From assembly GCA_010093815.1 (NCBI GenBank), contig ML996581.1: a stretch of DNA of 64,000 nt, one strand, 5' to 3'. The notes under the pieces were generated by a model that had not been told where the DNA came from, did no database searches, and was given only the letters and a program-made list of their open reading frames with translations. Below are positions 4,216 to 64,000 of this stretch, one piece after another; within the stretch, counting starts at the first letter, position 1; every line of letters begins with the position of its first letter. The translations under genes were made by a program, and so were the position numbers. This stretch comes from Pseudovirgaria hyperparasitica. Taxonomy: Eukaryota.

Positions 4216-7200
4216 ATAAGAATAATAATATTATATAACTAGATAGAGTAGTTTACTCTATAGGCGTATACCTTCTCTAGTCTAAGCTATTATATAAGAA
4301 GAAACCTTTATATAAGGAAAAACTCCCTTTTCTCTATAATTATATCTTATAAAACCTTTATATTATCTTAAGTATATAGCCGTTAGGTATACCTATAGGC
4401 CTATAATCTATAGTACCGTTATTTTACCCTTAGGTAGCATATATAGAGTACGGGGGTTATTAGTTAAGGGTTACCCTTAACTAATAATTAGGGTTCTCCC
4501 GGGGTTCTTCCGGCGTATACTAGAGTCTATCTAGTATATATCTAGTTACTTCTAGTATGTATATCTAGGTCTATTAGTATTAGGGGAGAGGGAGATATAT
4601 AAGTATCTACTAGGTAATCTTCTTAGAGTACTTATTAAGCTACTATATAATATTAGAGGTCCTTATTATATAGATAAGTAATTATCTCAATATATAAAGG
4701 TCCGGGTATATTATAAGATAGTACTATATTATATCTCTCTAGCCGTATACTTTATACTATAGAGACGTATCTAGAACGCCCCTCTAGTATAGGTAGTATA
4801 GAAGTTCTATAGCTTCTATTCGAGCTTAGAGAAGGATAGATACTTAGGCTTTTATAAGCCCCTTATATATCTATCTACTTAGCTCCTTCTATAATCTCTA
4901 AATCTATTCTAAATATCTATTCTATTAGAATGTCTAATAGGTCCGGAGGACTTCCTTCTATTTATTCTAGGTCTATAACTATATAGCCTATATAAGCTTC
5001 TAAGGGTTCTACTAGTCTAGAGAGGCGTCTAGGTTATCCCCGATCTCTTATATAATTTAGTTTAAGTCTATCTCTATTAGACTCTTATACTATAGTTAAT
5101 TCTAGCCTATATATAGTAGTACTTAATAGTAGGTACTAACTCATGTATATAGCGCGGTAAAGGTATATTCAGCGTATTCTACGCGTTTCTATACTTATTA
5201 TTTAGTAAAGTATATTACCCTCTATATCTAGTAGAAGTTATATATACTTATTATATTTATCTTGCGCTATAGTAGTACTATATTAGTAGTCTTATATATA
5301 CTAGAAATAGGACGGAGTATACGGTTCTATATAGACTTAAGCTTTATTTATCTAGTCTATATAAGAACTATATACTAGTACTTATGTCCGTACGTAAAGG
5401 CGGGTCGTACTATAGAGATATATAGTTAGCGTGTCTTATTCTAGGCGGTTCCCTATATAGAGGCCGTAATCTAGTATATAGCGGCTTCTACCTTAAGGGC
5501 CCTAGATACTATATATATAATCTATAGGCTCTATTTAAGTTTATTATTAATTATAATACCGAGTATATATATACTCTATATCGGTAGTTTAGTAAAAGTA
5601 TCTATTCTAGAACGTCGCTCTCCTTTCTTAGTAGCCTATTTTCTATAGTAGTTAATAAAGTATATAAGTTAGTATTTCTTAGAGGTGAACTTTACTCTAT
5701 AGCGCTTTACCTACTAGATATATCTCTTATAGTCTTATTTAAGGCGTTTATATATTAAACTAGTATTATTATTAATAGCTAGAAGGTATATATTATTAGC
5801 GTATCCTACTACCTCTATATATTATATTCTCTATAGAAGGTCTATAGTAAAGAAGAGAAAGAGAATTAGGGAGATAGTACTTTCTTATAGAATACTATAT
5901 ATTATCTTCTTATATTTACTTTAATATCTAGAGATATATATCTAGGTAATTCTTTCGGTAAGGAAGGACTATATAAACCTTATAATCTATTTAGGTATAC
6001 GTCTCTTCCGTAGGTTATAGATAAGTCTTATATAGTTTATCTTATTAAATACGCCGGCTATATTAAGGGAGAGTAATATTACTACGCGTCTCTATTTCTA
6101 TATAGTCTAGATAACTTTAAGGATATATTAGATAGCGGTAATTAGAGAGCTCCTAGTTTTTACCTTCTAATTCGCTAGAAGAAGGTTATATTCTTATACT
6201 ATAGTACTTATCTTCTTCGTAATTATAGTCTTAAGTATCTTACTAAGATAGAAGAGAAGAGTAATTAGTCTCTATCCTTTTAGGGAGTTAGAGTTCTTCC
6301 CTAGTTTTAGAAGTATAATAGTATAGACGGCCTAGAAGCTTTAGGGGTAGTATCTATTCTTAGTATATATCTAGAAGATAAGGCTAATAAGTAGTAGGGT
6401 TATCTATATAGTATATTTAAGGTATCTATTTAGTATTCTATCCGGTCCGGACGCTTTATTATTTAGAAGTACTCTAATAGTATTAAGAATCTTCTCTTCT
6501 ATAATCTCTATAGGGATATTAACCGTGTCTAGATATATATTATTATTAATATCTAATAGATCTACTAGCTCTAGGAGGGGAAATATAACTTCTTAGAGGA
6601 TCTCTATCTTTTTGGGGCTCGTGGTATATATTCTCCCCTAGTATATTAGGGAAGATATTAGTAGTAGTAGCGTCTACACGTCCGCGCTCTTAGCCTACTT
6701 TACTATATACTATAGCTCTATAGCCTATTATATATATTTATTAGTAATTATATACTAGTATTTACGTCATTTATTACGGAGGGTCTTATCTTAAGATTAG
6801 ATTACCTCTTTCTATTCCTTCTATATCTTAGTTATCTAGATATAGTATACACGTATATATAGTCTCCGGGCTACCCTTCTACTTTTATATATTTAAGGTA
6901 TACCCCTTACGTCTAGGGGCTTATATATTTAGTATAGTACGTGTTTATTTCTTAAGTTTTAGAAGGCTTAAAGAAGGACTTATATAGCTCTATCTATAGC
7001 CGGACTATTAGAGACATCGACTATAGAGGGGTCTAGAATTATTAATTCTAGGTCCTTTCTATACTTCTCCTAGTTAGTATCTTTCTATAGCTATCTCCCC
7101 TATTATTCGTTAGACGTAGATATATCTATTACGGTCTCTATATATTCGTAATTAGAGTCCGTTTACGTCTTACTAGGGCGGTAGTATTATACTCTATAGC

Positions 7201-9540: not shown

Positions 9541-10174
9541 ATCTCTAGTAGTATAGAGGTAGTAGCTAGTACTAGTATATTAGTAGCCTCTAGCCTAGAG
9601 TAGCTTAATAATATATATAAGCTAGTTAGCTAGCGGTATATTCTAAAGGAGCTATACTAGAGTAAATATATACTCTACGTCTTATAGAGCTATAGACTAT
9701 CTACGTTCTACTAGACTACTATTAGTAACCTCTATAATGTATATAGTAGTAGTTTTATATTACTTAATACGGTTATACCTTTTATATATAACTATTATAA
9801 TCGGCTTATCGGGGATAATATATCGAAAGATATAAATATTAAATATATTAAAAAGGATCCTTCGTGGGTATAGGTCCTTTCTATCTATATATATAAGACT
9901 ATATATATACTAATACGACTAGATAGAGATATATCTATAGAGGCCTTCGACCTAATTTAGGTAAGGTATACCTATAACTAGTAAAAGAGTAGTAAGGCTA
10001 GAGAGAATTATATAATAGTATAGGAGTTTAACGAGGGTAGTAACTACCTTAATAGAAAGCGGGTTAGTAAAGTCTATATATTTCTAGAGGTATACGATAT
10101 AGAGAGTATTAATATAACTAGTAGTATAGCGGCGCGATTTCTAGGTACATTAGTTAAACTACTTAATAACTTAG
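9541..10174 (+). pseudogene. Plavaka-like transposase relic, segment 2
   Basis: Resumes at the LINE TSD. Coding-like frame reads (de-RIPed) VRCTYNWQKSGKAREDYIMV...LNGKRVGKVHIF, resembling the Plavaka C-terminal region. Confidence 0.55.
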
Positions 10175-10414
10175 TATAAGGATTATAGACGTAGGATAGT
10201 AGTCTAACAGATTATAGAAGGATTCGGGAATATATTTAAAAGGGTAGTCTACTCTTCTAACGAGGTTAATTTCTAAAGAGTAGGAATTAAGTATATACGG
10301 CCTACTTATATAGTAGTCTCGCTTATTCTAGCTAGCTTACCCTAGGTCCACCTATTACGGACCGTACTAGACTATAGTATTCTAGTTAAGTCTATCCTAG
10401 TATTAGCCCTAATA
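10175..10414 (-). repeat. Gypsy 3' LTR
   Basis: Differs from 18552-18791 only by C/T and G/A transitions as far as I can see; adjacent to the PPT. Confidence 0.95.
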
Positions 10415-10901
10415 ATATTCTTCTTCTTTTTATGCTTCGCCCTAAAGTACTTAGCTATATATAAATCCGTAATTCTATAAGCGTTATATTTATATACGCA
10501 TCTAATTAAATCTATATAATATTATTAATAGTCTTTATATTAGTAAACTTAAGCTCTAGTTTACTTTTATTTATACACGCGCTTATCCCTTACTTTATAG
10601 CTACTACCTTAAAGGTAGCTCCGCGGGTTATATGACCGCTATATTAACTAAGCTTATATTTAGTTCTCTTATTCTGAATTTTCTTCTCTAGTATATCCAC
10701 CTTACTCTTAAGGTAAGTCGTTAATTCGTATACTATCTCCTTTAGTTTAGATCTATTCGGGTCTAGAGTAGTCTATTTTCGTTAGAGCTAGTTCTATATA
10801 ATCTATTCGCGTTATTACGGTTACTAATTTAGCTTCTTTAATTACCTTTAAGGCTAAACGAGTATTCTACTCTTAGATCTCTAGCTAACGTATATATATA
10901 G

Positions 10902-12207
10902 ATATCTAATACTAGTCCTATTTCTAAGCCTACCTCCTTCTCTCGTAAGACTCGCTCTAAAGAGATTACCTCTACCCCGGCTATACTAGCTAAAAAATCT
11001 ACTTATTATAGTAGTATAAAGGCGCGCTCTAAGTTAGAGAAGAAGATAGCTAAGGCTACTACTACTATTACTACTAACGTAGCTACTAGTCGCTCTAATC
11101 TAGGTAATCCTAGTACTAGTGTTACGGAAGAGGTAGCTATAAAGCCTACCTACACCTACTCGCGCCGTCTATCTACTCTACCTTCTTTAGAGGATAAAGA
11201 AGATCTCGTCGTAGATAATAATCGAGAGTTTATACCTTCGCCGCCTTACTCTAAATACTATTCCTCTTTTCAGTCTAATATAGACCGACTTAGTCGCTCT
11301 AGATTCTTTTAGGACCTTAATATTTACTCTAAACCTAGCCCTAGTAATAATAAGGCCTAGGTCGCCGAAGATACTAAACGTAGTTACGGTTTACGCTATA
11401 GAAAAACGGCGAACTATAGTTTAATATACTTTAAGTATATTAAGGCTTATACTACCGGCTCTAAATATCTCTTCCGCTCTAACTCTAGTATTAGCTACTA
11501 CTCTACTAACCGCGACGGGCCTATATATCTAATCTTTAAGCTCTCTACCCGCTACCGCCGCTATACCGTCCTTAGTAAAGTTTATCTTTAGGTAAGTCTA
11601 TTAGGCTATTTTAGTCTAGAGTAATCTAAAGTTATCCATGCTAATACGTTTTTAGGTTTCTATTTATATATAAGATATATATAACGATCTTCGCGTCCAT
11701 GAGACTCTTAGTAGTTCTAGTAGTTATCTAGCTTCTATACGTAGGGAGTTTAGAGAGCGCTATAAGCTCTTTCTAGAGGTTATTAAAGTATAAGTTTAGA
11801 AACCGTTAATTATTATTAACCTTAGCTTATAATTTTCAGTCGCCGCGAGATTCCTAGCGCTTAGGCTATCTATTCTAGGGAGTTGGTTTTAGCTACTAAG
11901 GCCGTAGAAGAGATTCGTGCTATTCCTTCTTATCCGCCTTATACTACTAACGGGTCTTATAAGAGATCTACTAGTTCTCCTTCTAAGTTACCTCGTAAGA
12001 GGGTATATATTCTATTCTAGATTATTCTAGACCGCGTTAGCTAACTTTAGGTCTAGTCGCTCTACTCTAGCGCTTAGTTATTATCTTACTAGGCTCTAAC
12101 TAAGCGCGTGGTTACTCTAGAGGATAAGGTCTCTAACCTCCGTTACTCTATTACTCGGTTAGTTCGTTTACTACGCTCTAAGAGTAATAATAAGATAGAG
12201 GAGTAGC
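10902..12207 (+). pseudogene. Spliced antisense gene inside the Gypsy element (Ser/Thr/Pro-rich N-terminus, Cys-rich domain, C-terminal heptad segment)
   Basis: Continuous coding-like frame. Introns at 10713-10901 (GTAAGT..GCTAAC..TAG, upstream of the inferred ATG), 11592-11655 (GTAAGT..GCTAAT..TAG) and probably 11788-11839 (..TTTCAG). De-RIPed CFKC...TRCRRCTVLGKVC at ~11427-11590. Confidence 0.65.
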
Positions 12208-12457
12208 TCTATGGCTCTATTTACTAGGGTTTCTATATGGTATGTGTTGGCTCTATCTACCTGGTTTCTATCCGTTTTAGTCCTTTTTAGACCGTTTAGA
12301 TACCTATCTACTAGTTTTCTAGTAATTTAATTCTTAACTTAATAATATTATATACGTTCTTATTTATTCTATAACTATTAAATTTTAGGTTCTAATTTCC
12401 TTTAAGTTACTTAAGTATAGGCATCGTATATAAATTAGTTTATCTCTCTAAATTATA

Positions 12458-12557
12458 TTAGAGTACCCGAACCAGTGGCCTAGTAGTTATTAGTTCGGGT
12501 ACTCTAACCTTTTATATTATATGTCACGAGTTTAATTCCGTAGTAGGGTACCTTTTT
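12458..12557 (+). ncRNA. Putative Pol III (tRNA-type promoter) hairpin RNA unit within the Gypsy 3' region
   Basis: TATATAAA at 12427. 17 bp inverted arms at 12458-12474 and 12491-12507 enclose an A-box-like TGGCCTAGT(A/G)G. B-box-like GAGTTTAATTCC (de-RIP GAGTTCRATTCC) at 12528-12539. T5 at 12553-12557. Confidence 0.5.
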
Positions 12558-15500
12558 AGTTTCTTAGTCCTATGTTCTTCTCATATATAATAGTCTATAT
12601 TAGTCTATTCTAGACTTCTCTATATTATTCTATTATAATATATTACGTCGTATGCCTATAACGATTATTTACGTTTTCTTCGCGTTTAGTAACCGTGTAT
12701 CGCTTGAATTATAGGGCTATCTTATAGAGTTTTCCTAGTGTACGTTTAGAATTCGTGATTTAATACTTCGTTCTCTATAGTATCCTTCTTCTTTTTATAA
12801 CGGCCCTAATAGTACTAGGTTTACGGTAGTAATATGTTATTCTATAACCTCTATTTATATATAGCTATCGCGGTACTTAAGATATGTACCGTAGGTTTCT
12901 AGGTGTTCTTATCCTTAGTATAGTTCTTCTAACGAATTTAATACTTTTAGATACCGTTCTCGTTAAGCCTATGTTCGATAATATAGTCTACTTTATATAC
13001 GTCTAGTCTATCTTAGAGTATAATAGAGTGTAATTACACGTTCGTGCGTTTATATATATTAGGTCGAAACCTTTTAAGTAATAAGACGTAGAATATGTTA
13101 TGGACTTTTATATTATTTTCTAGGTTAAGCTTATAGACTCTTATACTAATACGACGTTTAATTCGGAAGGGACTAGCTATTTTATAATCGAGCTTTTTAT
13201 TTACTCGCGATGTTTATATATTACGGACGTTAAGAAGGACTTTATCTCTCTCCTTATACGCTTAATCTTTAACTAATCTATTATAGTACTTTATATACGA
13301 CTTATTCACTTACTAGATTATTACGCGATAGTTACGTGCGGTTTTAAAGATTTTAATTGCTAGTTCCTACGCGTGGACGTTAACATCTATCGTTCGGTTA
13401 AACTAGACCGTATAAGGTTCGAAACCTATCCTTAGACTATATTCTAGGTTCGCCTAGAAGGGCGTAATACCTATTATACTATAACGACTATTATTATATA
13501 TGAATTCTACTATACTTAGTAGAGAGGCCTAGTCGTCTTATTTGAAATTATAGAATGCACGAAGGTAGGCCTCGAGTATTTAGTTCTATCGCTCTATCTA
13601 ACTATCTATTTATAGATAGAATGCTATTAATATGTTTCTATTTATACCGGCTATTTTATAGAATAACGTCTAGAATTTAGACGTGAATATACTCCCTCGG
13701 TCTATAACGATCCTTTTTAGTATACTATAGACCTTAATAATCTTATTCTAGAATACTTATACTAGTTCTTTTAATGTGATTATCTTCTACATAGGGACGT
13801 ACCTAGATATCTTTATAAGTCTATCCACGATAATAAGAATTAAATTATAACTCATTCTAAGTATCTTACTTAGAGGTAAGTTAACTATAAAATCTATAGT
13901 AATATCTTCCTATATAAAGAGGGGGACTAGTAGAGACTATAAGTTCCTATATAGCTTATGCCTAGGTGCCTTTATTCTTTAATAAATTAGATAAGTAGCT
14001 ATCTATTCTTCGATATACTTAGGTATATCTTCCTAAAATTAGTACTAATAAATTAAGCTTAGGGTGCGTATATACCCGAAATGTTCTACTAGGTTAGCGT
14101 TATAGTATCGGCTAACTATAGTAAATCGTACGTTATCTATTAGTATATAGTACTTTCTATTATAGTAGAGTAAGCCATCCACGAAGGTCTACTTATAGTC
14201 TACTTCGGTCCGTAATAACCTATCTTACTATATTTTACGTAACTTTAAAACTATCGGGTCTATCTTTTATAGATCCACGATTAACTAGGCGAGGTCTACT
14301 TAATATACACGCCGGGTACTATCGCCCTCCCTAATAGCGCCGATAAATGGCTCGCTAGAGACTTCGGTACCGTGTCTTTAGTTACCGGCTTTAGTCTTAT
14401 AAATTTAATTACCAGCATCAGCGTTAGCATCTCGCTAATCGTCGGATAACTTATTATCTAACCTCGTCCTTAAGAGTTAGGCCTATAGCTACTCTAGGAC
14501 CCTATAGCTACTATAATCCTAGGCGCCTTCTTTATAGTTAGGTCTTCTTAATATTCTATTAGCTAGGTTTATACTTCTAGATCGATGGTAGATTATAAAG
14601 TAGAAATTTATAAGCTACTTAGCCTATCGAACCTATTAACGATTTAAAACTATTATACTTATAAACCCCTTTAAGTTATAGTAATTAGTTAGTAACTTAA
14701 TATTATATATAGTACCTTTAAGATAATATCGCTACTACTTAAACGACTCTACTATTACTAGTAGCTCTTGGTTATAAATAGTATATCTAGTCTTAACGTT
14801 AGCTATCTTACGCAAGAAGAACGTAACTAGATACTATTAGACCTTTTTAGACTCTATTAGTCTAGGCTAGGAGAGTATACCCGAGATTATAAATTCTAAT
14901 ATATTAGTTTCGACGTAAATAGGTTTAGTTAGATCGAAGTACACTAGTAATAGAGCGGTTATAAATGCTTCTTTAATCTTCTTAAAGGATATTCTTTTAA
15001 CCTTAGTTAATTTAATAGATTATAATTTAATATTATACTATTTCTATCTACCACGGACCGTAATAGATAAGTCGGTAGTAGTAGTATATATATTAAGTAG
15101 TGCGGCTAAATAGGAGAAGTATTTAATAAATTTTTAGTAGTAGTTAGCGAAGCTAATAAAGACACGTATATCTTAAACGGATTTTAGTTTAGGCTAGTCT
15201 ATAATAGTAGTAACTCTATCTCTCTCTATGGTTATACCTTAATTAGTAATAATAAAGCTAAGAAAGTTAATATAGTTCTAATGGAACTTATATTTAGATA
15301 GCTTAATATATAGCTTATACTTTTCTAGCCTATCTAGGACTATATATACGTGCTAGATATACTCCTCCTCGTTATCTAAGAAGATAAGGATGTTATCTAG
15401 GTACACGATATATATCGTATTAAGTAGGCCTACTAGTACGTTATTAATATACGCTTAGAAGGTGCCTAGTACGTTAGTTAGTCTAAAAGGAACTATAGTA

Positions 15501-15846
15501 TACTTAAAGTATCTATAACGGGTCCTAAAAGCCGTTTTCTATTCGTCGCCTTCCTTAATATAAAGGCGATAGTAGACGTTACGTAGATCGAGCTTAGTAA
15601 AGATCTTTACGCGTTCTAGTCTATTAATAGACTCGGAGATAAAAGGTAGTAGATAATAATTCTTTCGCGTAATATTATTTAGACTATAGTAGTTAATATA
15701 TAGACGGAGGCTCCTATCCTTCTTCTTTATAAAGAGAATTAGAGCTCCGGCTAGAGATATACTAGGCCTAATCTATTCTCGCGTAAGGTTCTTTTTAATA
15801 TATTCTCGAAGGGCTTATAACTTAGATTCTAAAAGAGGGTAGATAG

Positions 15847-16447
15847 TGTTAGGCACGTAAGGAGCACGTGGCCTGCCAGTTAATTATACATGTGTGTAGT
15901 AGTCGTATATAAGTAGTATACTCCACCCTTAAAGTAGTAGCTTCAAGATTCGGTCCTTTTAGTATAGTTGGTTAGTGTGTGGAGCCCGCCTCCTTATATA
16001 ATCTTAAAGCTACTACGGGGTCACGGGTTCAACTCTCGGTCTAGTCAACCGTTATTAAATTTCGCACGATTCCGTTTAGCTTGCCACGTTACGTGTCCTT
16101 TAAGCACGTGACGGATAACATGGTAGTAACATTACTATGGTAAGTTAGTGTGTCTGGTGCTAGAGGCGGTATTACGAGTATTGGTTATGTGTGTACATGG
16201 TTTATACTAGGCCCGTTACGGCTAGTTTAGTTTATCTTTCGTAAGGTAGTATACCCACGACGTGTAAGGATACGCGCCTTTGAAAAGGGGGATAATATTA
16301 GGCACGTGAGGAGCACGTGGCCTACTAGTTAATTATACATGTATGTAGTAGTTGTATATAAGTAGTGTACTCCACCCTTAAAGTAGTAGCTTCAAGATTC
16401 GGTCCTTTTGGTGTAGTTGGTTAGTGCGTGGAGCCCGCCTCCTTATA
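15847..16447 (+). mobile_element. TRIM (601 bp non-autonomous LTR element), copy 1, inserted in Gypsy pol
   Basis: 152 bp LTRs at 15847-15998 and 16296-16447, starting TG. PPT GAAAAGGGGGATAA at 16282-16295. 5 bp TSD GATAG at 15842-15846 and 16448-16452. No ORF. Confidence 0.95.
15960..16036 (+). promoter_or_regulatory. tRNA-type Pol III internal promoter of the TRIM: A box in LTR U5, B box in internal region
   Basis: A box TGGTGTAGTTGG (intact in the 3' LTR at 16409-16420, RIPed at 15960-15971). B box GGTTCAACTC at 16026-16035. Upstream TATATAAG at ~15906. Confidence 0.65.
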
Positions 16448-18551
16448 GATAGGTTCATATAGAGGTTACTAGCCGTCTTCGAGATTAATAGTAAGGTTAG
16501 TAGATTAGTATTAAGGTAGTTTAGAGGAATCGATCGCTAACACGATATATTAGTATATTTTATACTAATATAGTAGGTTTTCGTCTACTTTAATACTAAG
16601 CTCGCTATTTTACGTGAGTAAGAGTATATAGATAGTAGAGATCGCCTTCTTATAATCCTTCTAGAATTATTTATTCTCGATAAGCTATACTAGTTTCTAT
16701 TAAGGTAGGTTTATACGCTAGCTAGCTATCTTCTTAAGGAAGTCTAGTTTTAGGTTATATTTCTTAAGCTATAGTATACCTAGAATTATATTAAAGGGAC
16801 TATCTACCACGATAAAGGTTAAGTAGTAGAGTTTCTATTTCCCTCCGCTATCCTAGATACCGTATTTAATAGTATAGATACTATATAACTTAATAGAACC
16901 GTCGATACTATGGAACATAGCACCTATTAGAGCTTAGATATCGGCGTTAAGTTCTCGTGCTCGTTAGGTTAATATAACGTTAGTAGCCGACCTACTATTA
17001 AGTATTATAGTTTAATATTATCTACGAGGGACCTTAATAGGTCTAGTCTATAGTTTAATATACTATTTAGCGGATTACCCCTCTATTATAGTCGCGTCTA
17101 TAAGTCGCGAGGGTTTCTCGTAGACTATTAGTTTTTTATATTCTATACTAGGTAGTTAGGCGCGATATGTTCTAGCTACTAGCACTTATAGTATATAACT
17201 AGTTAGTTAGTTATATTAGTACTTAGTAGCTTCCCTAAACGGTACTTAGATACTATATAGTCTATTCTACTATAGGTATAGTAAGTAACTTTAGGTCGTT
17301 TATACGAGTCGGTCCTTATATCTTAATATATTAATTAGTAGGGAGATCCACGATACGATCCGCGTGGTTTTAAATTTAAGGCGTGGTAGTAGCCTTATAA
17401 CGTCCCGCGAGATCTATTACTAAATCGGTTTTAGTTAGATAATTTTACGTTAGATTAGATTATTAGGGATAGTTATACACTAGCGCGGTGTTAATTATTT
17501 ATTATATACTAGTATCGCTCCGCGAGGTTTATAAGAGCTTAGAGGTCTATAGAGATTATCGTTATAAGGTTAAAACGGTCCTTTATATTTAGGGTAAGAG
17601 ACCGTTTAAAGTCGTTATACTATCGAATTATATAATCTTCTTCGGCTTCTCTCTAGAGGGGCCGAAGGTATTTAAGGAGTTATAACGGTAACTAATTATC
17701 TCGTTATCGAGTCTTAAAGATATGGCCCTAGGCCTAGTTACGTTGTTTAGCTCTATCGCTAAAATATTAGAGGAGAAATTCGGTAAACATGTCCTAGTTA
17801 TAGGCATCCTTAGAATATTCGATTTAGTATACTATCTAACGTTCTAAAGGCGTCGGGTTAAGGTAGTTCTAGGCGAATCTAATTTTATTACTATCGTTCG
17901 TAAATAGATAGAAGAATCGGCTATATTAGTAAGCCTATACGTGGAAACTCTTTCTACTTTTACTATTAAAGTAAGGTGGTTTCTTAGGTCGGGGTAATTA
18001 GGATAGTAGTAGACTAGAATGGATCGTTTTAGTTGGTATAGGTCTATATAAATATAGATTAGTCGTTGCTAGAACTAAAGCGTATAATATAGCTTTAAGT
18101 CTCGTAGTACGTCCTTAAGCTTTATTAAGTTTACGTAGTTATTACTCGAGTTAAACCTATCGTTACCTCTCTTTATATAGTCTAGTATATACGTCGTTAT
18201 AAGGTGTAGTTAATATTAGGCGATTCTAACGGATTAACTCATTAACGTTAATAAGGTCTAGCCTTATATTAAGGTTAGGTCTAGTATAGTTTAAACTAGA
18301 CCGAGATAGAGTATAATAGACTCTATCCTCGTATTCTATAATATCTTCTATAGTTATACGGAATATTATACGAGTTATTAGTACGATAGTCTATAAGGTA
18401 TAATTATCGGTAGGGGTAGTTATAGGTAGACTATTCTTCTTATTTAGGTTAGGAGAAGGTCTACTATAAGAGGCGGTACCACGAGTATTATAATAAGTGG
18501 TTAGAGCCGTTTCTATGAACTACTATCGTGCTATATAAAGAGAAATTAAAA

Positions 18552-18791
18552 TATAAGGATTATAGACGTAGGATAGTAGTCTAATAGATCATAGGAGGAT
18601 TCGGGAATATATTTAAAAGGGTAGTCTACTCTTCTAACGAGGTTAATTTCTAAAGAGTAGGAATTAAGTGTGTGCGGCCTACTTATATAGTAGTCTCGCT
18701 TATTCTAGCTAGCTTACCCTAGGTCCACCTGTTACGGACCGTACTAGACCATAGTATTCTAGTTAAGTCTATCCTAGTATCAGCCCTAACA
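18552..18791 (-). repeat. Gypsy 5' LTR
   Basis: Ends ...TAACA at 18791 (TG on minus strand) and is followed by the TSD. Confidence 0.95.
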
Positions 18792-19050
18792 CTTAGATAG
18801 AGGTAATATTAATACTATTAGTAGCCTTATACTATTATATATAGCGGGTTAAAGGTCTAGTAATAAGACTTATATAATAGATAGGTTCCGTGTCTATAAG
18901 CTAGAGCATATCCTACGCCCTATATAGATTATATTATATTAGTTAGTTATAGATAGTTTATTCTAGTTAAATACGTATAGTAATTAGGGGATCTATAACG
19001 AGGTATATAATCTAGACTTCTAGGCTATAAATAGATAAAACGTAACTATA
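18792..19050 (+). pseudogene. Plavaka-like transposase relic, segment 3 (C-terminus; end approximate)
   Basis: Continues after the Gypsy TSD. Reads FRVYKLEHILRP.QI, similar to the family's C-terminal motif. Confidence 0.4.
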
Positions 19051-19522
19051 GCGTTAAAACATGGGCGCGTATTATAAGTCTATCGCTATCTACTACTACC
19101 TACCGTAGTATACTAGTATATACTAGTATATAGTAGAAGTAATAGTTTATATATAGTAGCACTCGATAGTCGTATCCTATACTAGAATATCTCTAAGGAA
19201 TAATCGTGGTTTATTACGATCGGTTCTATAAAAGGCTTATATTTAATAACTATCTATAATTTTAGCTAAGGAGTATCTAGGGATATACCTCCTTATTATC
19301 TAATAATTACTAGCTAGTATAAAAACTCTACGCCTCTAAAAGGGGTATATAGAACTTAAAGAATTTTTATTCACGGGTAGAACTAGATACGGATAGTATT
19401 AACCTAATATAGATAGATTATATATATTAATACCCTAAAATCTAAACTATATCTCTAGGCCTACTAGACCTAGCTCGTATCTAATTCTAATGTTTTTATT
19501 ATCCGCGTTTATATCTTATTAG

Positions 19523-22400: not shown

Positions 22401-22917
22401 CTATCTAGAAGAGATAGTTACTATAGAATTTAGAAGATAGACTTAGTATCTATAGTGTTAGTATGTCGGACGGCTAAACTTTTATATAATACTATTTACT
22501 TATATCTATATTTATCTAAGCCCCGATTTAATAGCCTTCTATAATATACTATATACTTAGTCGGCGAGCTACTAGACTTATATAATAGTAGTATACTACT
22601 CTACTTTATATACTACTTAAGCTACTATTACTTTAGCCTACGTTAATCTTAGCTTCCTTTAGTTATCTCTATATTATAAAAGAAAACTTCTATAAACCTT
22701 TTCTCTACTTATCTTGGTTTTTAAATCTAAATCTTACCTTCTATACTTTATTCTATATTAATTATAACTATATATAAACGCTACGTCGAACTCGACTCTA
22801 TTAACCCTTAAGGTCCATTCTATATAATAGTTAATAAGATTATATTTATAGTTTATAATATAGATTAAGAACTCGTTATATTTAGTAATATTTAGGACTA
22901 GTCTATACTTAACGTAA

Positions 22918-23143
22918 TTAAGCCTTACGTTTAAGCCGATCCTTATATTTAAGTCGAGTCTTACGTTTAAGTTAAGCCTTACGCTTAAGCTAATCCTTAT
23001 ATTTAAGCCGAGCCTTATATTTAAGCCAAGCCTTATGTTTAAGTCGAGTCTTACGCTTAAGCTAATTCTTATATTTAAGCCGAGCCTTACGTTTAAGCCG
23101 ATCCTTATATTTAAGCTAAGCCTTATACTTAAGTCGAAGCTTA
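22918..23143. repeat. 18 bp tandem minisatellite, ~12 copies (TTAAGCCGAGCCTTACGT)
   Basis: Directly visible. The period is a multiple of 3, so it is probably a 6-aa coding repeat. Confidence 0.9.
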
Positions 23144-24267
23144 AAATATAACTACTATCTTAACTAATAATAAACCACTTATCTTTAGTATACTTACCGG
23201 TAACTACTATTCTAATAATAAGTATAAACTTAAGAAGGTCTAAAGTAGTAAGGCTCCTGTTTCTACTTACGCTATCTATTAGATCTCTCTTATATAGAGT
23301 AATCTATAGTTAATCTTTAGGAATGTCTATAGTATTAGTAGAGAAATAGATAGACTTAAGTAGAAATAAGTGAAAACTTAAGCTAAGCTTAAGCTAGTAG
23401 TATTTAAGGCTCGTGGTAAAGGTTATAGCTTTAAAGAGTCGATTAGTTATATATATAGATTCCTTAAATTCCCTAAGTACTACTCTTAGATTAAGTTATA
23501 TACTCGCTTCTAATAGATTAATAAAGGGAAATTAGTATCCTTAATAAGCTTACTCCGCTTTAATTATACTAATATCCTTCTATTATCCGACTACCCTACG
23601 GTATAGATCTTTAAGATTAAGTAAGTAGATAACTTTATTAAGTATTTTTCTAAACTTTCTAATCTTATTATAAGCGAAGTAGATAAAGCTAATATACTAT
23701 ATACTAATACCGGTCTCTATAAAGACCCTTATAACTTTTAGATTATTAAACTTATAGCTAGTAAGCTTCTTAGTATAGGTTTTACTATCCCGTTATATAT
23801 TAGATCTAATATAATATATAAATAAGTAAAGTAATTCTTTTAAGATCTAGATACTTATACTATAGTTTATATCTTACTACCGCTATGTAACTCTATAGAT
23901 CTTACTAGCTTTAATAATAAGCTTAAACTAGAGAGCGATCCGATTAATTTATAGTATATAGAAGTTACTACTCCCTATATATAATATAGTATAGAGAAAA
24001 AAAACTTCTTACACCCCAACGGACCAAACTAGTCAATTCGGGGTAAAACAGCGATTTACATATATTAAATAATAGAGTATACCGAGTATAATAACCTCCG
24101 ATACACGTGCGTACGTATAGCGTATAATACGCGACGATACCGACGTATAGAGACACTATATATATACGCTTAAAGACTCTTCGATAACACGAGTATAGAC
24201 TATATCTAATAAACGCCGACACGCCGACCCCCTTTTATTAGTTAAGGGCTACCCTTAACTAATAACC

Positions 24268-25719
24268 ATGGCGGCCTTAGGCATCGTAACACCCCGGTAT
24301 ACACCGGATATACCCCTACTAGTATAGTAGAAACGGCCATATAGCGATATTAATATAGATAGCTAGACACCTATCTAAAATATAGGAACTAACTAAGGGT
24401 ATAAAGCGCTATAGATAACCTAGACTAAGGGGACCCCGAGAGGGGAGACCCTCCTAGATAAAATTAAATACTAGGTAATACGTGTAGAGAGGGACGCTAA
24501 GGAGGGAAAGAAGACCCTTCTTTATATATTCCGGGACCTTATCTAGAACCTAAGAGAAATCACGGAGAAAGAAAGGAAGTCGCCACGAGAGGAACCTAGT
24601 AGTAGGCTTGACCGAATAGAAGCTAGCCTACGGAGAATCTAGGAAGAGCTATCCTAAGGTAAGCGCCCTAATACGTGGGCTTAGATTATAGTAACACCCG
24701 GAGCCACCGTACTAAGAACTACTAGAACTATAGATAGAGTATATAGTATACGTATCGTAATCTAGGATAAGAACACGCTAGCGTAGATCTAATAGGCATC
24801 CCTAAAGGAAATTATAAATAAGATTAATGAATAGAAAGGAATGTAGTTGAGCGTCGTGGCTACTAAAGTTACGCTAGGTAGGGTAGTACTTACTACTATA
24901 ACGAATACTACGTAGTAAAACATCTTATAAGATCCGAATATAATAGGTAGTATCTTCCCTAGCGCGTCTATTAGAGTAGCCATATACCCGATTATAGTAT
25001 ATATAGTATCCGTGCGGGGATAGGCTATCGGAGCGGAGAATATTACGCGTATAGAATAATCTAATACGCGAAAATACCTAGGGATTAAGATCGTGAAAGC
25101 GTGGTAGAAGAACCTATAGGCGATTAAGACGACGGTAAAAAAACACTCTACTATAATTATAGAGCTCCGAGACCCCGCCCTCGTATAACGCATTATATAG
25201 AAGGGATTCCTAATAGAAGGAGAGCTTCTTATAGCCGAGCTATAGAATAGGATATAGGTAATAATATAGTGCTTTAACTATTAAGGGTATAGATATACTA
25301 TATAAAGGTACTTATAGAAGACTAAGTGCGGATAGTACCGTAGGGACCATGCTACCTAGAAGTGCCCTTATGAACCGCGAGGAGACGGACCAAGAAATAG
25401 GGATATAGTATAGTATTTAAACTACGACGGGAAACACCCGTCGTGGTCGTTAACGTGTATAAAACGTAAATAGATTATAGAATATATTTATATAATAAAA
25501 GCGAGAGACGCGAGATAGTTATAGAATATAACACCTATTATAAGCCCTTCCTTTATAATATCCCTAATCTCCTCTCCGGAAGGTAGTTAGGTAGGATAGT
25601 AGACTATCCTAAAGACGATAGGACGACTAAAAGGTATAGTTAAAGCCGCTACCGCGTGAGGACAGTCGCGCCTCTAAGGAATAAGTATATAGGTATATAT
25701 ATTCTCTAGTATCTAATAA
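24268..25719 (+). pseudogene. LINE ORF1 (gag-like, CCHC knuckles)
   Basis: ATG at 24268; 484 codons in frame to a TAA that overlaps the ORF2 start; de-RIPed CFNCQGYGH (~25270). Confidence 0.85.
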
Positions 25720-28700
25720 GGGACTAGAATATACTCCGAATTATATAGGTAAACGTATAATATAAAAGAGAGAACTAGGCGACGCTCCTTAAAGAGACCG
25801 GGGCCATAATACTCGCCATCTAGGAACCCTATAAACACTACTAGACGAGTAAACCAACCACACACCCCGGATACCATACTATATACCCTCTAGGACTAGA
25901 AAGACGAGTCCTCTTCTACATTTATAGGTTAATACTACTCTTATTATAGTCGTATACTAAGCGCGATAACCTTAGGATAATACTACACCTATAAATAGAT
26001 ATAGGCCCTCTATATATATATAATATATATAACTAATAACGTGTACTTATACTAGACGAGATACTCGAGGGTACCACGGAACTAGGGTAATACATCCTCC
26101 TAGAAGACTTTAACCTCTACTACTAATAGTAGGGAGGCCTAGCCATGGTTAGGGAAGAACTTAGAGTAAGGGAACTACGTACCCGCTACTACGACTTCCT
26201 ATACCTACTTATACCTATAGAATAAGTTATATAGAAAAAACATAAATAGGATAAAGACGGGTCTATACTTAACCTTACCTTCGCCACGGAGTATATTAGT
26301 TACTAGATCTAATACTACCGCCTAGGCTAGGTATAGACGGATTCTAACCACGAATACATGGAAACCATAATAAACGTATATACCCCGAATGAATAACGGG
26401 GACGATAGATATAGAAGGATACTAACTAGGAAAAGTACCTAAAGGACCTGGAATCGGCGATCCTAGATCCCTCTATAGTTAATATATCTAACGACCTAGC
26501 TATAGACCAGGCCGTATAGATACTCCTATAAATATATTAGAATACGAGAAATAAACACGTACTATACTAAATATACCGGCCCCTAGAAGTAAAGGGGATT
26601 CCTTAAGTACGGGAAAGTAGATAAGACGCCTAAAGGCTATATACACGCGTATACCGTACGAGAACACCTAAGTCGTAGAAAGAATAGAAGGAAGTAATAT
26701 AATAATACGATAAAGTCCTCCGTAACGAAAGGCGTAAATAGTAGTATATAATTACTAGTTAATAGACACGATACGTAATAGGGCTATAGCGTATAGCGAA
26801 ATAGGCTAAGGGCGTAGACACTCCGACACCCCCGCTACTTATGCCTCCCCTAATATATTAGAGGAGAATATACTCTATAAGCCTTAAGAAAACTAAGGCC
26901 CTACGGGAGGCTATATTCCCTCTCCTAGAACTAGTAGACCTATTAGACGTTCACGGCGCTAAATATCTATACACGGTAGACATCCCCGAAGAAGTTACGG
27001 AGGAGGATATACTTAATATTATTAAGATACTCCTAAATGATAAAGCACCTAGACTAGATAGAATTCTAAATCGATACCTAAAAAGCACTATAAAAGCGAC
27101 CCTACCGCTTATTACTCGTATATTCTAAGCATACGTCACGTAGGGGTACCACCCCTAGAGCTTCCGAGTCGTCTATACTATTATACTCCTAAAACTAGGA
27201 AAGAGCCCTAACTCTCTAAAGGGATAGAGACTAATCGCCCTTCTCTCCTACCTAGGTAAGATACTAGAGGCTATGATAGCGAAGAAGATAAGTACCGCGG
27301 TATAGAAATATAATCTCCTCTCTCCGAACTAGAAGGTAAAGATAGATAGCTCCCTAATAATAGCTATCTAATATATTATTAAAGTCGTCTAGGCCGTATA
27401 GAAATAGGGACGGGTAGTATCGCTTCTCTCCCTCGATATGGCCGGAGCGTTTAATAAGGTAAACCATATAAGACTTATTTATAACCTCTAGATAAGACGA
27501 ATACTAGAATGGATTATACGCTTTATATAGTCATTCCTCATAGGAAGAATAACTTAGATATATATCCCTAGGTACTAGAGCGAATATAAAGAGACGGCAT
27601 ACGGCATCCCATAAGGGAGCACCATCTCTCTAATCCTATTCCTCTTCTTTATAGTAGATCTTCTTTAAGGAATAAAGTATATAGAGGTAGTCGGATACGC
27701 CGATAATATATACCTCCTAGCTATTAATAATAATACCAACCGAACGTATAGACGACTAGAATAGAACTATAAGAGGTGCCTCTAGTAGGTAAAACGCTAT
27801 AGAGTAAAGTTCGCCCTGGAGAAATACCAGCTCATGCACTTTATTAATCGTTAAGGGAAATAGGTAACTAGGGAAGGCGAATAACGCCCCCGAATCGACG
27901 CATTTAACGAACTACTAGTATAAAGTATACGCGCGCTTAGAGTCATACTAGATGGCAAGCTTAAATAGGGACCATAAGTAGCATACGCCGTCTCTAGGGC
28001 CCTCTAGGTAGAAGCCGCTATATAACGGATTATAGCCTCCACGTAGGGAACCGCCCGGGATAAGGCACGCTAGCTATATATATCTATGGCACGACCCGCC
28101 TTCACGTACGGATATAAGTGCTAGTATATAGCCCTTATATAGACTAGGCGAATAAAGCTCGAATCTATATAGAACCGTATACTCCGTCTTATATTAGGCG
28201 TATATAAAGCTACTAACACGGTGCTACTATAACGCGAGACAGACGTTATAAGTATATATAACTTCTACTAGATATAGAGGGTAGTATACTTTACTAAATA
28301 ATAAGCATAGGAACGCATAGGAAACGTAGAATATACTTTCGCCGCGCTACGTGCACGAATTAGCATATATTACCGCGTACTCCTATATATAGGCTAGAAT
28401 CGAATACGGTATAGGTGCTTAATAGAAGCCGACTCTAGCTAAGTAGTATAAGAAGTCCGAGATAACCCGGACGCTCTCCTAGACTAGTAGAGCCTTTAAG
28501 AACTTATGAAAAATATACGGTCGTGGACTTAAGATAAGTAGAAAGAGGCACTCTATGCCTACTAGACCTCCTAGTAGAATAGGTACCTAGAGTGGATTTA
28601 AGGGCTATAGAAGGAACCGAGTAAATAGATATATAAAGGGCTAACGAAAGCCTAAGTATCTATACTTATCTAAGCCCGAACGGGCGCCATGGGACTTCTA

Positions 28701-29039
28701 TACTATATCTATAAGAGAGGCGTTCCCGATACCTCCCTATAGTGTAAGGCGTGCGGTCGGAGAGGTATAATACGCTACTATCTAGCTATATACCCTAACC
28801 TCTATATATAACGGTAATGGCTTATCCACGTTACGAAGACTTTAGATATCGTATAATAGCTTAATAAGTACCCTAAGGACGTCTCCCGATAGATGCTTAT
28901 ATATCTACTACTCCTCTAGTACTAGTGGACCCGGAAATATATACCGGAAGAGACCTAGTATACGCCGGTAGTAACCTAATATATACCGGAAGAACCCCGG
29001 GAGAACCCCGATTATTAGTTAAGGGTAGCCCTTAACTAA
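25716..29039 (+). pseudogene. LINE ORF2 (AP endonuclease, reverse transcriptase, C-terminal Zn motif)
   Basis: AIQEP, GDFN-like and SDH-like endonuclease motifs; PQGS-like and GYAD(D) RT motifs (~27693); CKAC..H....C (~28743). 1108 codons in one frame. Confidence 0.9.
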
Positions 29040-31947
29040 TAGCCTCCGCATCTATACGTGCTACCTAAGGGTAAAATAACGGTAATATAGACTATAGGCT
29101 AATAGGCGTACCCTATAGCTATATACTTAAGACGAAATAGAGGTTTAACGAGATATAGTTATAGATATAAGGAAGTTTTTCCCTATGGGGTTTCTTTTTA
29201 TATAGTGGCTTAGACTAGAGGAGGCATAGGCCTATAGAGTACTACTCTACCTAGTTATACAATATTATTATTATTATTATTATTATATATAATATAGTAT
29301 AATAAGTAGGCCGGATACTTAGCCCTAGATCTCTATTCTCTACCACGAGTTATTTAATAAGAAATTTAACTATCTAATATATATTACTATAAGTACCTTA
29401 TAAGATAAATAGGCGGATCTTCTATTATTCTAATTCTAAGACGTTACCGTCGGGTATATCTAGCTCTTAGATATTACTTTGGCGCTCTTAGCTATTATCT
29501 ATTCTATTAATATAAAAGGATTCTATTATATAGAACTAGGTAGTCGTAGATACCTTAAAGTAGATTTAAAGGATTATAATAACGATATATACCGCTTTAA
29601 AGTCCTTCAATTTCACCTAGGCGTCCTTCTATTTAAATGCCTCGCTCTAAAAGTCTTTAATAAGGTTAGACGTTCTTCTAAAGTACCTAAGGTACTAATT
29701 ATATTAATAGATATAGTTACTAATATAACTTAAGCTTATTCTAAATATTTTATTCGGACTAGCGATACTAGTTTAAGTATAATTAGATTATCCCTTACTA
29801 TACTTATAGAGTTTATAGACGTTCTAGCTTTAGTTAGCGTATAAACCTATAATAAGCTTACTAAGTAATATATTAATATATACTAGAAACTAACCTACTA
29901 CGCCGTATAAGCTTCTAGAGATAGTAGCGTAGATGACTATACTACTTAGAATGTATTTAATATGATAGTCCTTAATATTATTATAGACTTAGTGTCTATA
30001 TCTCTAATATATAGGTCCTCTAACTCTAATAATAAGATTCTAGATTATAGTATAGAGCCTTAGGATACCCTTATTACTCTTTCTAAATTATCTATATCCC
30101 TAGATAATAATAAGAATATAAATATAGAATATAGTCACGATGTTATTAGCGACGAAGGTTCTATTACTAGCCCTATTACTAATATATATATACTCCTAAT
30201 ATTATCTAAAGTCTACTCTAGTATTCTATCCCCTTTACTACCCTCCGTATAGAATCTAATACTTAGTAATAACTATCTAAATCTTTAACCCGTTAACTAT
30301 AACTACTACGTTAAAGATTATAAAAGATTCTATAATCTCTAGAATATTATATATTTAGAACTATCTCTCTAATAATAGTATATCTATATATAGGCGATAG
30401 ACGTACTTAGAGCTTAGTTCCTACTTTATAGCTATAGAGGAGCTAGGAAGAGCTATTTATAGCTTTATCTACTACTAGCTATACTTCTAATTAACGAAAT
30501 AAATAATACTCCTATTATCGCTTATACTACTAAGGTAGTTATTCTATCTAGCGATATAATAGCGTACCTCCCTATACTAGGTTCCATCTAAATATATAGA
30601 ATATATATATATATTATTATCGGTCTAACTAACGAAACCTACGACGACGCTATAAGAAAAGTATATAAATATATAAGTAATATATTTACTTACTATAAGT
30701 CTCTAAAGATACTAGTTATTCTTTAAAGATACCCCGAAGCCGTTAATTAAGAGGTTTTCTTTACTATAGCTAGACTATCTTATTACGGCGACCCTCTTAT
30801 CGGGCTAACCTAGAATAATATAATAGATAGTACTATCCTTACGTAAGCTTAGGCCGACTATAGTAAATAACTATTAGAATATAGTACGGATCCCCGTACT
30901 TATCTATAGAAACTATATACTAGTTATATTATACTTAAGGTTGTTAGACTTATTAAATCTTAATACTAATATAAATAGATCTCTAAGAATTTCGAGAAAG
31001 AAACAGCTTGGCTATTATATACTATCTATAAATATTATACTTATAATAAGGATATATCTAAGGAGGAGTATAATAGAATAAACGAGCTATACCTTACTAC
31101 CTAGAATCTAGTTACTATCTACGCCTAGATTTATATAGGGACCCTATATATTATAAATATCGCTAACGTAGTCTATAATATATATCTAATTTTAGTTATA
31201 ATAGAAGAGGCTACGTATATCCTTAAAAGTAATATACTTAGAATTATTATTAATTATACTACTATAGAATAGTAACTAACATTTATTTACGTCGGCAACC
31301 TACGCTAGCTTAACATCTACTAGTATAATAGTACTAATATATAGGCCGCGAACTAGAGGATCTTCTTTATAAAGCGCTAGATATAATATAGTTTTCTAAC
31401 TACTTAACTTACCAAGTTAGAATACTTAGTTCCTAGAATAATAAACGTTATATTACTAATTACTTACTTAGGCGAGCTAACGACCTTACCCTATATAATA
31501 AATAATATTAATATACTACTCGTAGAGACCGTTTAATAAATATTTAGAATCTATAGCTATTAATACGTTATATATACTAACGTTAATAGAGATTATATAT
31601 ATATAGTAAATAACTTAATATATAATATAGACTTATTATATTTTACTTAGTAGATTATTACTAAGCTCTTCTATTATAGCGTTATACTTAATCGCGTACT
31701 CTATATTTCTATATACGCTGTCTAATATAATCTATTTAAAGAGATAGTTAGAAACTTGCTTCTAACTATACTTACCGTAGTAGATAAAGCTTAATTTAAT
31801 ACCCTACCTAAGCCGGTATAGAAGCTTATCTAATGGCGTTTATAGAACGGTTCTTAGAGTTATAATAATAATATAGTCCTTATCGACCCGGTCTAAACTA
31901 ATTACTTCGGCTTCCTCTTAGAAGTAAACCGTAATATTATTACTATT

Positions 31948-32548
31948 TATAAGGAGGCAGGCTCCACGTACCAACCAACTATACTAAAAGGACCGAATCT
32001 TAAAGCTACTACTTCAAGGGTGGAGTACACTACTTATATACGACTACTATACATATGTAGAATTAACTGGTAGGCCACGTGCTCCTTATGTACCTAATAT
32101 TATCTCCCTTCTCGAAGGCGCGTGTCCTTACGCGTCGTAGGTATACTACCTTACGAAAGATAAACTAAACTAGCCGTAACGGGCCTAGTATAAACGATGT
32201 ATACATATAACTAATACTCGTAATGCCGCCTCTAGCACTAGATACGCTAACTTACCATAGTAACGTTACTACCATGTTATCCGTCACGTGTATAAAGTAT
32301 ATATAATATGGTAAGCTAAACGAAATCGTGCGAAATTTAATAACGGTTAACTAGACCGAGAGTTAAACCCGTAACCCCGTAGTAGCTTTAAGATTATATA
32401 AGGAGGCGGGCTCCACGCACTAACTAACTATACTAAAAGAACCGAATCTTAAAGCTACTACTTCAAGGGTGGAGTACACTACTTATATACGACTACTATA
32501 TACATGTAGAATCAACTAGTAGGCTACGTGCTCCTTACGTGCCTAATA
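31948..32548 (-). mobile_element. TRIM copy 2 (601 bp), inserted in helicase motif VI
   Basis: Reverse complement of 15847-16447. LTRs at 31948-32099 and 32397-32548. 5 bp TSD CTATT at 31943-31947 and 32549-32553. Confidence 0.95.
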
Positions 32549-63700: not shown

Positions 63701-64000
63701 TATAAGAGAGGCGTCCCTAACGTGTCTCTATAGTATAAGGCGTACGGCCGGAGAGGTATAATACGCCACTATCTCGTAATATACCCCGATCTTTACACGT
63801 AAAGGTAGAAGCTTATCTATATAATAAGAACCTCTAATATCGTACGATAGCTTAATAAGTACCCTAAGGAAGTCGCCCGGTAGATAATTATATACCTACT
63901 ACTCCTCTAATTCTAGTAGACCCGGAAATATATACTAGAAGGAACCCGGCATATATTAGAGGAAACCCGGTATATACTAGAAGAACCCCTTAACTAATAA

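Follow-up and report, generated by a model that had tools for sequence, protein, structure and literature searches.

Remains of a candidate antisense accessory gene in a RIP-mutated Ty3/Gypsy chromovirus of Pseudovirgaria hyperparasitica

The element and the insert behind its pol gene

The stretch of DNA analysed here, hereafter the window, comprises 64,000 nucleotides of contig ML996581.1 of Pseudovirgaria hyperparasitica (assembly GCA_010093815.1), and the whole of it is AT-rich repeat DNA with a GC content of 21-42%. It carries on its minus strand a Ty3/Gypsy chromovirus of about 8.7 kb which has been destroyed by repeat-induced point mutation (RIP), and in the space from pol to the 3' long terminal repeat (LTR) of this element lies a segment whose plus strand, antisense to gag-pol, holds a coding-like frame (10632-12207). 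Based on our results, we tentatively favour, with a confidence that falls just short of even, the reading that this segment is a decayed mosaic accessory gene of a known class, the antisense open reading frames (aORFs) situated between pol and the 3' LTR. This kind of feature is already known from other fungal Gypsy elements, and the dead copy studied here cannot prove it.

The element is bounded by a pair of direct repeats (blastn, 10110-10412 and 18486-18789, 87.7% identical) flanking 8.4 kb. In a purine/pyrimidine alphabet, 10173-10414 and 18550-18791 are 100% identical over 242 nt; therefore the two LTRs were the same at insertion and all later differences are transitions. Using both alignments, we place the 3' LTR at 10113-10414 (minus strand, outer boundary approximate) and the 5' LTR at 18489-18791 (minus strand, inner boundary approximate). 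The TGGTACCGCC string after the 5' LTR is, by its position, a candidate primer-binding site, and no clear 5-bp target-site duplication was seen at the element ends as placed. The chromovirus gag-pol occupies 12854-18484 on the minus strand, with 171 in-frame stops in 1875 codons. Pfam recognised RVT_1, RT_RNaseH_2, RT_RNaseH and SH3_Tf2-1 (the Tf2-type integrase SH3) in one minus-strand frame; Chromo was not called by Pfam itself on the RIP-changed pol text. A protein-collection search with the element's pol returned 318 relatives, the best 120 of which are Gypsy polyproteins, mostly with a chromodomain. A RIP-adjusted profile built from 14 of the chromodomain-bearing relatives finds the protease at 16487-16685 (55.8-75.1 bits), then the domains from reverse transcriptase (RT) to integrase in order, and lastly an integrase-C/chromodomain block (152 bits), the pol homology ending at about 12854. 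Here and below, RIP adjustment means that the substitution matrix and the profiles were passed through a simulated RIP channel, which raised the pol score from 772 to 969; scoring by whichever possible pre-RIP residue fitted best was of no use (background median 34-49 bits, the segment ranking about 600 of 1284). By Pfam and the RIP-adjusted profiles taken together, pol has the order protease, RT, RNase H and integrase with a C-terminal chromodomain, and a reading made from the sequence alone, before any of these searches, was right to see a Gypsy element with pol on the minus strand, as the single-frame domains and the LTR pair confirm.

The 3' LTR (10414) is about 2.36 kb away from the pol end with its polypurine tract (12784-12796). 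This tract lies 58 nt beyond the end of the pol homology, where the 3' LTR of a compact element would begin; here it is followed by the 2.36 kb, by a second polypurine tract (10418-10431, a pyrimidine run on the plus strand), and only then by the LTR. The tract occurs twice in the element, each time within an 85-nt block: the LTR-proximal copy of the block (10412-10496, minus strand) is 74% identical to the pol-proximal copy (12777-12861, minus strand), and the similarity stops exactly at the LTR edge. This anatomy suggests that the segment is an insert acquired between the tract and the LTR, with duplication of the tract block. We found no terminal inverted repeats around the insert and no transfer RNA (tRNA) or Rfam match that would mark a standard transposon. 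At 12458-12507, 250 nt past the end of the last frame described below, there is an inverted repeat whose 15-bp arms match perfectly around a loop of 20 nt, without an Rfam or tRNA match; its arms contain neither CpA nor TpG, so RIP would spare them.

The insert is not particular to this copy. Short contigs from two DNA runs (X1 and X2) of one sample of the source organism were matched to 9800-19100 at 80% identity or more, which gave 25,605 contigs in X1 and 9,765 in X2. Position 10612 is covered by 41 different contigs, the junction at 12776 is bridged by one diverged contig (25 differences in 155 nt), and one contig skips 10413-11389. Differences between copies fall at 148-211 places per transition type, versus at most 7 per transversion type. 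The insert exists in many RIP-diverged copies, a statement that we make for many copies and not for every one; within the window itself, blastn in the ordinary or the purine/pyrimidine alphabet detected no further copy of the segment. That the segment might be a one-off insertion, an outcome for which the sequence-only reading had allowed, is countered by these many diverged copies in the organism's DNA reads. Two further runs with the same species label (X3 and X4) gave only 8 and 4 contigs and were uninformative, because adapter plus CTGCAG ends suggest reduced-representation libraries; their contigs fall mostly on 15717-16960. Among the sequencing runs listed as containing the stretch there is no RNA run.

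RIP is indicated by a TpA/ApT index above 0.89 and a (CpA+TpG)/(ApC+GpT) index below 1.03. The whole window gave 1.66 and 0.16, the segment between pol and the 3' LTR gave 2.21 and 0.08, and across all tested parts the two indices ranged from 1.66 to 2.21 and from 0.08 to 0.26. Because the indices lie beyond both thresholds and the differences between copies are transitions, the Gypsy element is a RIP-mutated repeat.

The plus-strand frame and its intron-like units

The core of the frame is a long open stretch, 'exon 2' of the gene model (10902-11591, plus strand), which has 3 stops, all TAG, in 230 codons and is rich first in Ser, Thr and Lys and then in Tyr. A 230-codon window, taken over all six frames, has 22 ± 8 stops on average and never fewer than 3; windows with three stops or fewer make up 0.08% of the total, and the count of 3 in 230 codons is reached at two further places in the window. 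The stop rate of exon 2 is to be compared with 171 in 1875 codons for the element's own pol. Its translation is diverse and not a simple repeat. The coding-like plus-strand frame that had been noticed between pol and the 3' LTR is upheld.

Two intron-like units flank this exon. The first (10713-10901, 189 nt) begins with GTAAGT, has CTAAC at 10885 and ends with AG, and it holds 6 in-frame stops in 63 codons versus the 3 in 230 of the exon that follows. The second (11592-11655, 64 nt) reads TAG|GTAAGT at its start, which may formerly have been CAG|GTAAGT, then CTAAT at 11641 and a final TAG; in both units AG comes about 10 nt after CTAAC or CTAAT. Across this second unit the open frame shifts from phase 0 to +1, just as a length of 64 nt would require. 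By our arithmetic about 0.26 complete intron-like units would be expected on the plus strand in 1.6 kb, and two were seen. Furthermore, just one of the 79 open reading frames (ORFs) of at least 60 codons in the window is directly followed by GTAAGT, and this one is exon 2. Upstream, the putative first exon (10632-10712, plus strand; an ATG and 27 codons with one TAG) is weak, since the ATA at 10902 could equally be a RIP-changed ATG.

Downstream, the last frame (11841-12207, plus strand) has 122 codons with 8 stops and closes with a TAG at 12205. It reads like a protein sequence, and the heptad-like tail described earlier is real: a leucine repeat of four heptads spans 12096-12161, with Leu at 12096, 12117, 12138 and 12159. 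By exon, the model contains 1, 3, 1 and 8 in-frame stops, and one junction is out of phase; with these interruptions, this copy lacks the open reading frame that the aORF class possesses. Among the in-frame stops of the model only TAA and TAG occur, as RIP of CAA, CAG and TGG predicts, and RIP would explain them if the ancestral frame was open. Because it carries at least 13 in-frame stops and an out-of-frame junction, this copy cannot work.

Under RIP, the codons TGY (Cys) and CAY (His) both become TAY. The Cys cluster of the sequence-only reading contains no Cys codon and is made of TAT and TAC codons only, which RIP could derive from TGT and TGC. Thirteen of the last 70 residues of exon 2 are Tyr, and at 11496-11585 (plus strand) TAY codons occupy five of six positions with Zn2Cys6 spacing (x2, x6, x8, x2, x6), the second position being ACT (Thr). 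This spacing, CX2CX6CX8CX2CX6C, is the exact spacing of Family A, one of the groups of antisense ORFs of related elements described below. The window's 127,996 codons contain 9 matches at five of six positions, and we estimate the chance of one falling in the exon 2 frame at about 0.03. The pattern of PF00172, CX2CX6CX5-12CX2CX6-8C, is not present as such, with Cys absent, TAY at five of the six positions and Thr at the second, and exon 2 has no Pfam match, including Zn(2)-Cys(6) PF00172, at E up to 10. As a possible former Zn2Cys6 domain, the Tyr cluster is suggestive.

Antisense frames of related chromoviruses and known elements

Using the pol profile, we retrieved 79 metagenome loci of related chromoviruses, and 41 of them, those reaching the 3' end of pol with at least 600 nt beyond, were evaluable. 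Just behind pol, 21 of these 41 loci carry antisense ORFs with a CX2CX4-10C motif, divided into Family A (7), Family B (6), Family C (5) and others (3). Family A (L019, L039, L042, L049, L050, L059, L072 and L074; for example L074:6608-7198, minus strand of the locus) is intronless, about 190 amino acids long, and has the cluster CX2CX6CX8-9CX2CX6-7C followed by a helix of about 75 residues (AlphaFold mean predicted local distance difference test score 76). Its profile matches LAC9 (E 0.005), GAL4 (0.035) and LEU3 (0.077). The same profile reaches 340 protein clusters and no Pfam family; the clusters listed are mostly on contigs shorter than 8 kb, one among them is named, a hypothetical protein of Sporormia fimetaria, and Atlas places the look-alikes of Family A in Ascomycota. 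Family B (L033, L037, L041, L046, L047 and L066; antisense behind pol) lies within clear LTR pairs. In Family C (L052, L054, L055, L062 and L064; antisense behind pol), two of the five loci have a phase-2 intron, GTAAGT...TAG, of 46-49 nt inside the cluster (L062:4239-4287 and L064:5811-5856, minus strand of the loci), and its splicing restores CX2CX6CX10CX2CX6C; in L054 the donor is mutated to ATAAGT.

These families share with the window frame their place, their orientation and the succession of a Cys-type cluster and a coiled coil, and Family C also shares a short canonical intron with the window model, yet there is no detectable homology between Families A-C and the frame. The window model further differs from the intronless Family A of about 190 amino acids in having more than 400 codons, a roughly central cluster and an internal protease relic. 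The coiled-coil part of Family B scored 20.1 bits against the last frame, ranking 2 of 1284 bins in plain translation and 6 with RIP adjustment. With the Gal4-type Zn(2)-Cys(6) domains (Gal4, LAC9, Ppr1, Hap1, Leu3, Pho7), Family A shares the six-Cys spacing and the dimerising helix, with weak profile and fold matches; in the window, five of six positions are readable as former Cys, without a Pfam match, and the intact relatives also stay below the Pfam cut-off.

Antisense genes have been described in this position before. In PMC7264820 and PMC8365987, an antisense gene, brtn, of the Boty-like elements of Botrytis and Sclerotinia is cited to Zhao et al. 2011, and it is also mentioned in PMC4227169 and PMC5987419. 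Like the window frame, brtn of Boty belongs to a fungal Ty3/Gypsy chromovirus, in which it forms an additional gene situated behind pol, before the 3' LTR, and runs antisense to gag-pol; the likeness noted here is one of position and orientation. A full-length BcGypsy1 (Boty) copy measures 6,428 bp (Table S2 of PMC8365987), against about 8.7 kb here; therefore brtn must be much shorter than the 2.4-kb segment. No protein named BRTN is among the matches listed in the word search with the tail, the Gypsy relatives and the Family A profile search, none of which compared a BRTN sequence itself, and brtn is not mentioned in the supplement text of PMC8365987. Plant aORFs, whose function a review (PMC7264820) gives as unknown, have the same position and orientation, are present in most copies of their families and are suspected of a regulatory role; they differ from the window frame in kingdom and bear no sequence relation to it. 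The word 'intron' has 0 occurrences in the main text of that review. In PMC2864245, the features that a figure legend gives for surveyed LTR elements include an 'additional ORF with unknown function'. A literature search that combined Gypsy and antisense with Zn2Cys6 or zinc cluster gave nothing relevant, subscription papers lying outside it, and we make no claim that the Gal4-like nature is unpublished.

An antisense accessory gene that keeps its introns, as first proposed, therefore agrees in position and orientation with a known class (brtn and the ORFs of the relatives), and its intron-bearing, Zn-binding form describes the relatives well (21 of 41 loci, and the Family C intron), whereas the specific claims for this element are unproven or weakened by the lack of homology, the Tyr-codon pattern, a failed intron and a protease relic in the stretch read as exon 3 and intron 3.

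Origin and meaning of the insert

Several results weigh against an accessory gene at this locus, beginning with the searches. With the exon 2 frame, phmmer returned 0 matches in 1.84 billion representative proteins; a word search with the tail gave 0 matches and the metagenome contigs 0 matches to the frame. Searches by tblastn and with the RIP matrix uncovered no relative of the frame in the 79 related loci or among the Family A proteins, and hidden Markov models of Families A-C did not find it. Whether homologues of the frame always sit in Gypsy elements, a check suggested by the sequence-only reading, had nothing to work on in these proteins, contigs and loci. Exons 2-4 had no collinear match in 89 Gypsy polyproteins, and a comparison of the segment, in six frames, with every ORF in the 79 loci produced nothing beyond noisy scores (63-78) in stop-filled frames; therefore only target-specific nulls were trusted. 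Exon 2 also seemed similar to sites at 28.4, 53.5 and 56.6 kb of the window, but these were rejected as low-complexity matches to elements resembling long interspersed nuclear elements (LINEs).

The cluster and the gene model raise doubts of the same kind. The ACT codon at the second cluster position is not derivable from Cys by RIP, and the RIP-adjusted Family A profile gives the cluster 17.7-21.0 bits, rank 5 to 33 of 1284 bins; the best RIP-adjusted Zn-cluster profile scores of the window lie elsewhere, at 5672 (minus strand, 25.4 bits) and 27827 (plus strand, 24.4 bits), sites that could be zinc knuckles of other RIP-changed elements. The third intron that had been thought probable at 11788-11839 (plus strand, 52 nt) is unsupported, being one base off and failing to join the frames; of the three introns proposed, those at 10713-10901 and 11592-11655 have GT...CTRAY...AG with joining frames, including the phase fit of the 64-nt unit. 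GTAAGT occurs 55 times on the two strands of the window, and 21 of these sites (38%) also look like complete introns. The frames neighbouring exon 2 are fairly open (13 stops in 229 codons in the plus +1 frame, 9 in 230 on the minus strand), so composition helps its openness, and the last frame, with 8 stops versus 7 in the +1 frame in 122 codons, is indistinguishable from its neighbour. Summed contig depth in X1 (about 100-206 thousand in insert bins, 35-367 thousand in pol bins and 16 thousand in the flanks) is similar for the insert and pol and much greater than in the flanks, but such depths are unable to rank the parts of the element or to give copy shares. Finally, the relatives themselves match zinc clusters weakly: for Family A, Zn2Cys6 DNA-binding domains fill nearly all of the top Foldseek rows, with E values of about 1 or more throughout, and Pfam Zn_clus was seen in 5 of 20 of the relatives' ORFs at 10-17 bits, below the cut-off of 21.

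A further observation concerns the third exon. In the RIP-matrix alignment it corresponds to the active-site region of the protease of three related loci (L028, L057 and L067), and the match continues in frame through the supposed third intron to 11820 (KPLIIIN versus RPLTVID, the differences all RIP-compatible). The protease-like relic (11668-11820, plus strand, 3 stops) matches the N-terminal half of that protease and takes up most of 'exon 3' and 'intron 3'. Among 6384 windows of 60 codons, the best against L028-lineage targets were the element's own protease (67.5) and the relic (65.1), with 46.4 the best elsewhere. With 85-residue protease targets from 40 loci, the relic scored 65.1, 58.6 and 54.8 for L028, L057 and L067, compared with background maxima of 38.6-41.9 in the 6384 windows; with the remaining 37 targets it does not rise above noise, and a general protease profile is blind to 11668-11820. 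The catalytic D-S/T-G reads S-S-S (AGT TCT AGT), and about 50 residues align, which is not a full-length domain. By this alignment, 11668-11820 is homologous to a retroelement protease, which makes at least 150 nt of the 'gene' retroelement-derived and the insert a mosaic. A resemblance, found by eye, of 'IPSYPPYTT' to the pol LPPHRxYDH motif had no support from any score and was dropped. Since the relic sits where exon 3 and intron 3 had been read, it fits captured debris better than a tidy regulator gene, a further point against a gene. Two unlikely coincidences thus pull in opposite ways, namely a GTAAGT at the end of the open frame with the right phase, and a protease relic at an exon.

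The serious rival, somewhat improbable in our judgement, is therefore that the insert is an inert captured fragment: a reverse-oriented gag-like ORF with the protease start of another LTR retrotransposon, brought in by template switching or recombination and without accessory function, the GTAAGT motifs being due to chance and the change of frame between 11591 and 11656 being the gag/pol frame change of the donor. The plus-strand protease homology, robust and specific to the L028 lineage, speaks for such an origin, as does the layout of a gag-protease junction, in that a long ORF closes with a Cys/His-like cluster, comes to a stop and is succeeded, after 77 nt, by the start of a protease in a different frame; L028 shows a comparable spacing of its CCHC knuckle, gag stop and protease segment. 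The share of GTAAGT sites resembling full introns and the duplicated 85-nt block, which points to an acquisition event, agree with it as well. However, exon 2 shows no similarity to the gag-position ORFs of related loci (169 ORF pieces; 73 versus a null maximum of 65 ± 5.6), in a method that detects the element's own RIP-changed gag (123 versus 62 ± 3.6), nor to the gag or knuckle region of the L028 lineage. Beside 11668-11820, neither strand yielded a relic of gag, of a knuckle, of the rest of the protease, or of RT, RNase H or integrase from any lineage. The Tyr spacing does not match CX2CX4HX4C, and both the GTAAGT placed right after the last codon in one window ORF of 79 and the stop rate of exon 2, far below that of the element's own pol, would have to be accidental.

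It is quite unlikely, in our view, that there is no gene at all and that the open frame is a compositional by-product of pyrimidine-rich RIP-changed DNA, its gene-like features being coincidental. The openness of the neighbouring frames, the two other places with 3 stops in 230 codons, the nine Zn2Cys6-spaced Tyr/Cys patterns of the window and the lack of a homologue in proteins, word search and metagenome contigs all lean that way; against it, an open frame, two intron-like units on the same strand, a phase fit, a heptad tail and the aORF position coincide in 1.6 kb, the translation is diverse and not a simple repeat, and the insert has been kept in many copies. The idea of a transduced host gene fragment, captured antisense with its host introns and not adapted to the element, would account for the introns and for the single acquisition that the duplicated flanking block suggests, and gene transduction by LTR elements is documented in PMC7264820, but we consider it the least likely, given that the 1.84 billion proteins hold no host-like homologue, that part of the region is a retroelement protease, and that the segment is highly repeated, where transduced genes, according to that text, usually have one or few copies.

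Other repeats surround the element or lie within it. Its gag-protease region contains a 157-nt duplication (15842-15998 and 16291-16447, minus strand, 449 nt apart), and a 610-nt copy, 90% identical, lies elsewhere in the window at 31943-32552 (minus strand). On the plus strand, 24000-29500 and 51000-64000 contain RIP-changed LINE/Tad-like elements (RVT_1; Exo_endo_phos_2), with a GC content of about 40% and an A-rich plus strand, and in the region from 51 to 64 kb the matches recur every 3,113 nt. In the ORF list, a fragment at 6404-6592 (minus strand) contains 'KASGPDRILN', a string which we take to be non-LTR reverse-transcriptase-like and which may presumably belong to a retroelement of a third kind lying just to the left of the Gypsy copy. 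An 18-nt unit is arrayed in tandem at 22902-23189 (11 overlapping 108-nt copies, 62-87% identity), and 10 N stand in a row at 55536-55545.

Returning to the decayed antisense accessory gene, which we favour, the sequence of events could be as follows. The window holds one RIP-inactivated copy of a high-copy Ty3/Gypsy chromovirus, whose ancestor, judging from the anatomy, may have acquired the 2.3-kb insert between its polypurine tract and its 3' LTR, with the 85-nt tract block duplicated on both sides. Thereafter the insert would have spread with the element, as its many diverged copies indicate. Its antisense strand would be the remains of an accessory gene with a Ser/Thr/Lys-rich frame, a Cys/His-type cluster that is now Tyr and a leucine-heptad tail, and with at least one short intron, probably shielded from loss by its antisense orientation. 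The gene region is a mosaic, in which 150 nt come, according to the alignment above, from another Gypsy lineage's protease gene. If the intact antisense ORFs of the relatives are taken as an analogy, the product might have been a small nuclear dimer with a Zn cluster and a coiled coil that bound DNA and tuned the transcription of the element or the host.

In conclusion, our results emphasize that open frames and GTAAGT motifs alone are insufficient for a gene call in RIP-changed DNA, and their interest lies mainly in the comparison set, the present copy being dead under every reading. Antisense extra genes of LTR retrotransposons have been reported in plants and in Boty of Botrytis; if the wreck described here is such a gene, it would be a second fungal case, much larger, with introns and a mosaic origin, and it would show how elements pick up modules, the insert being flanked by a duplicated polypurine-tract block. 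The comparison set is the more useful, as about half of the related intact elements sampled have an antisense Gal4-like ORF, and whether such proteins bind their own LTR or host promoters is now testable. A wider proposal, which we regard as unlikely in its full extent, is that many ascomycete chromoviruses encode a Gal4-type DNA-binding protein antisense behind pol, sometimes with an intron, and that the family in the window is a larger, divergent, intron-bearing version made in part from a protease fragment. If this were true, retrotransposon-borne transcription factors would represent a common and overlooked layer of fungal transposon biology.

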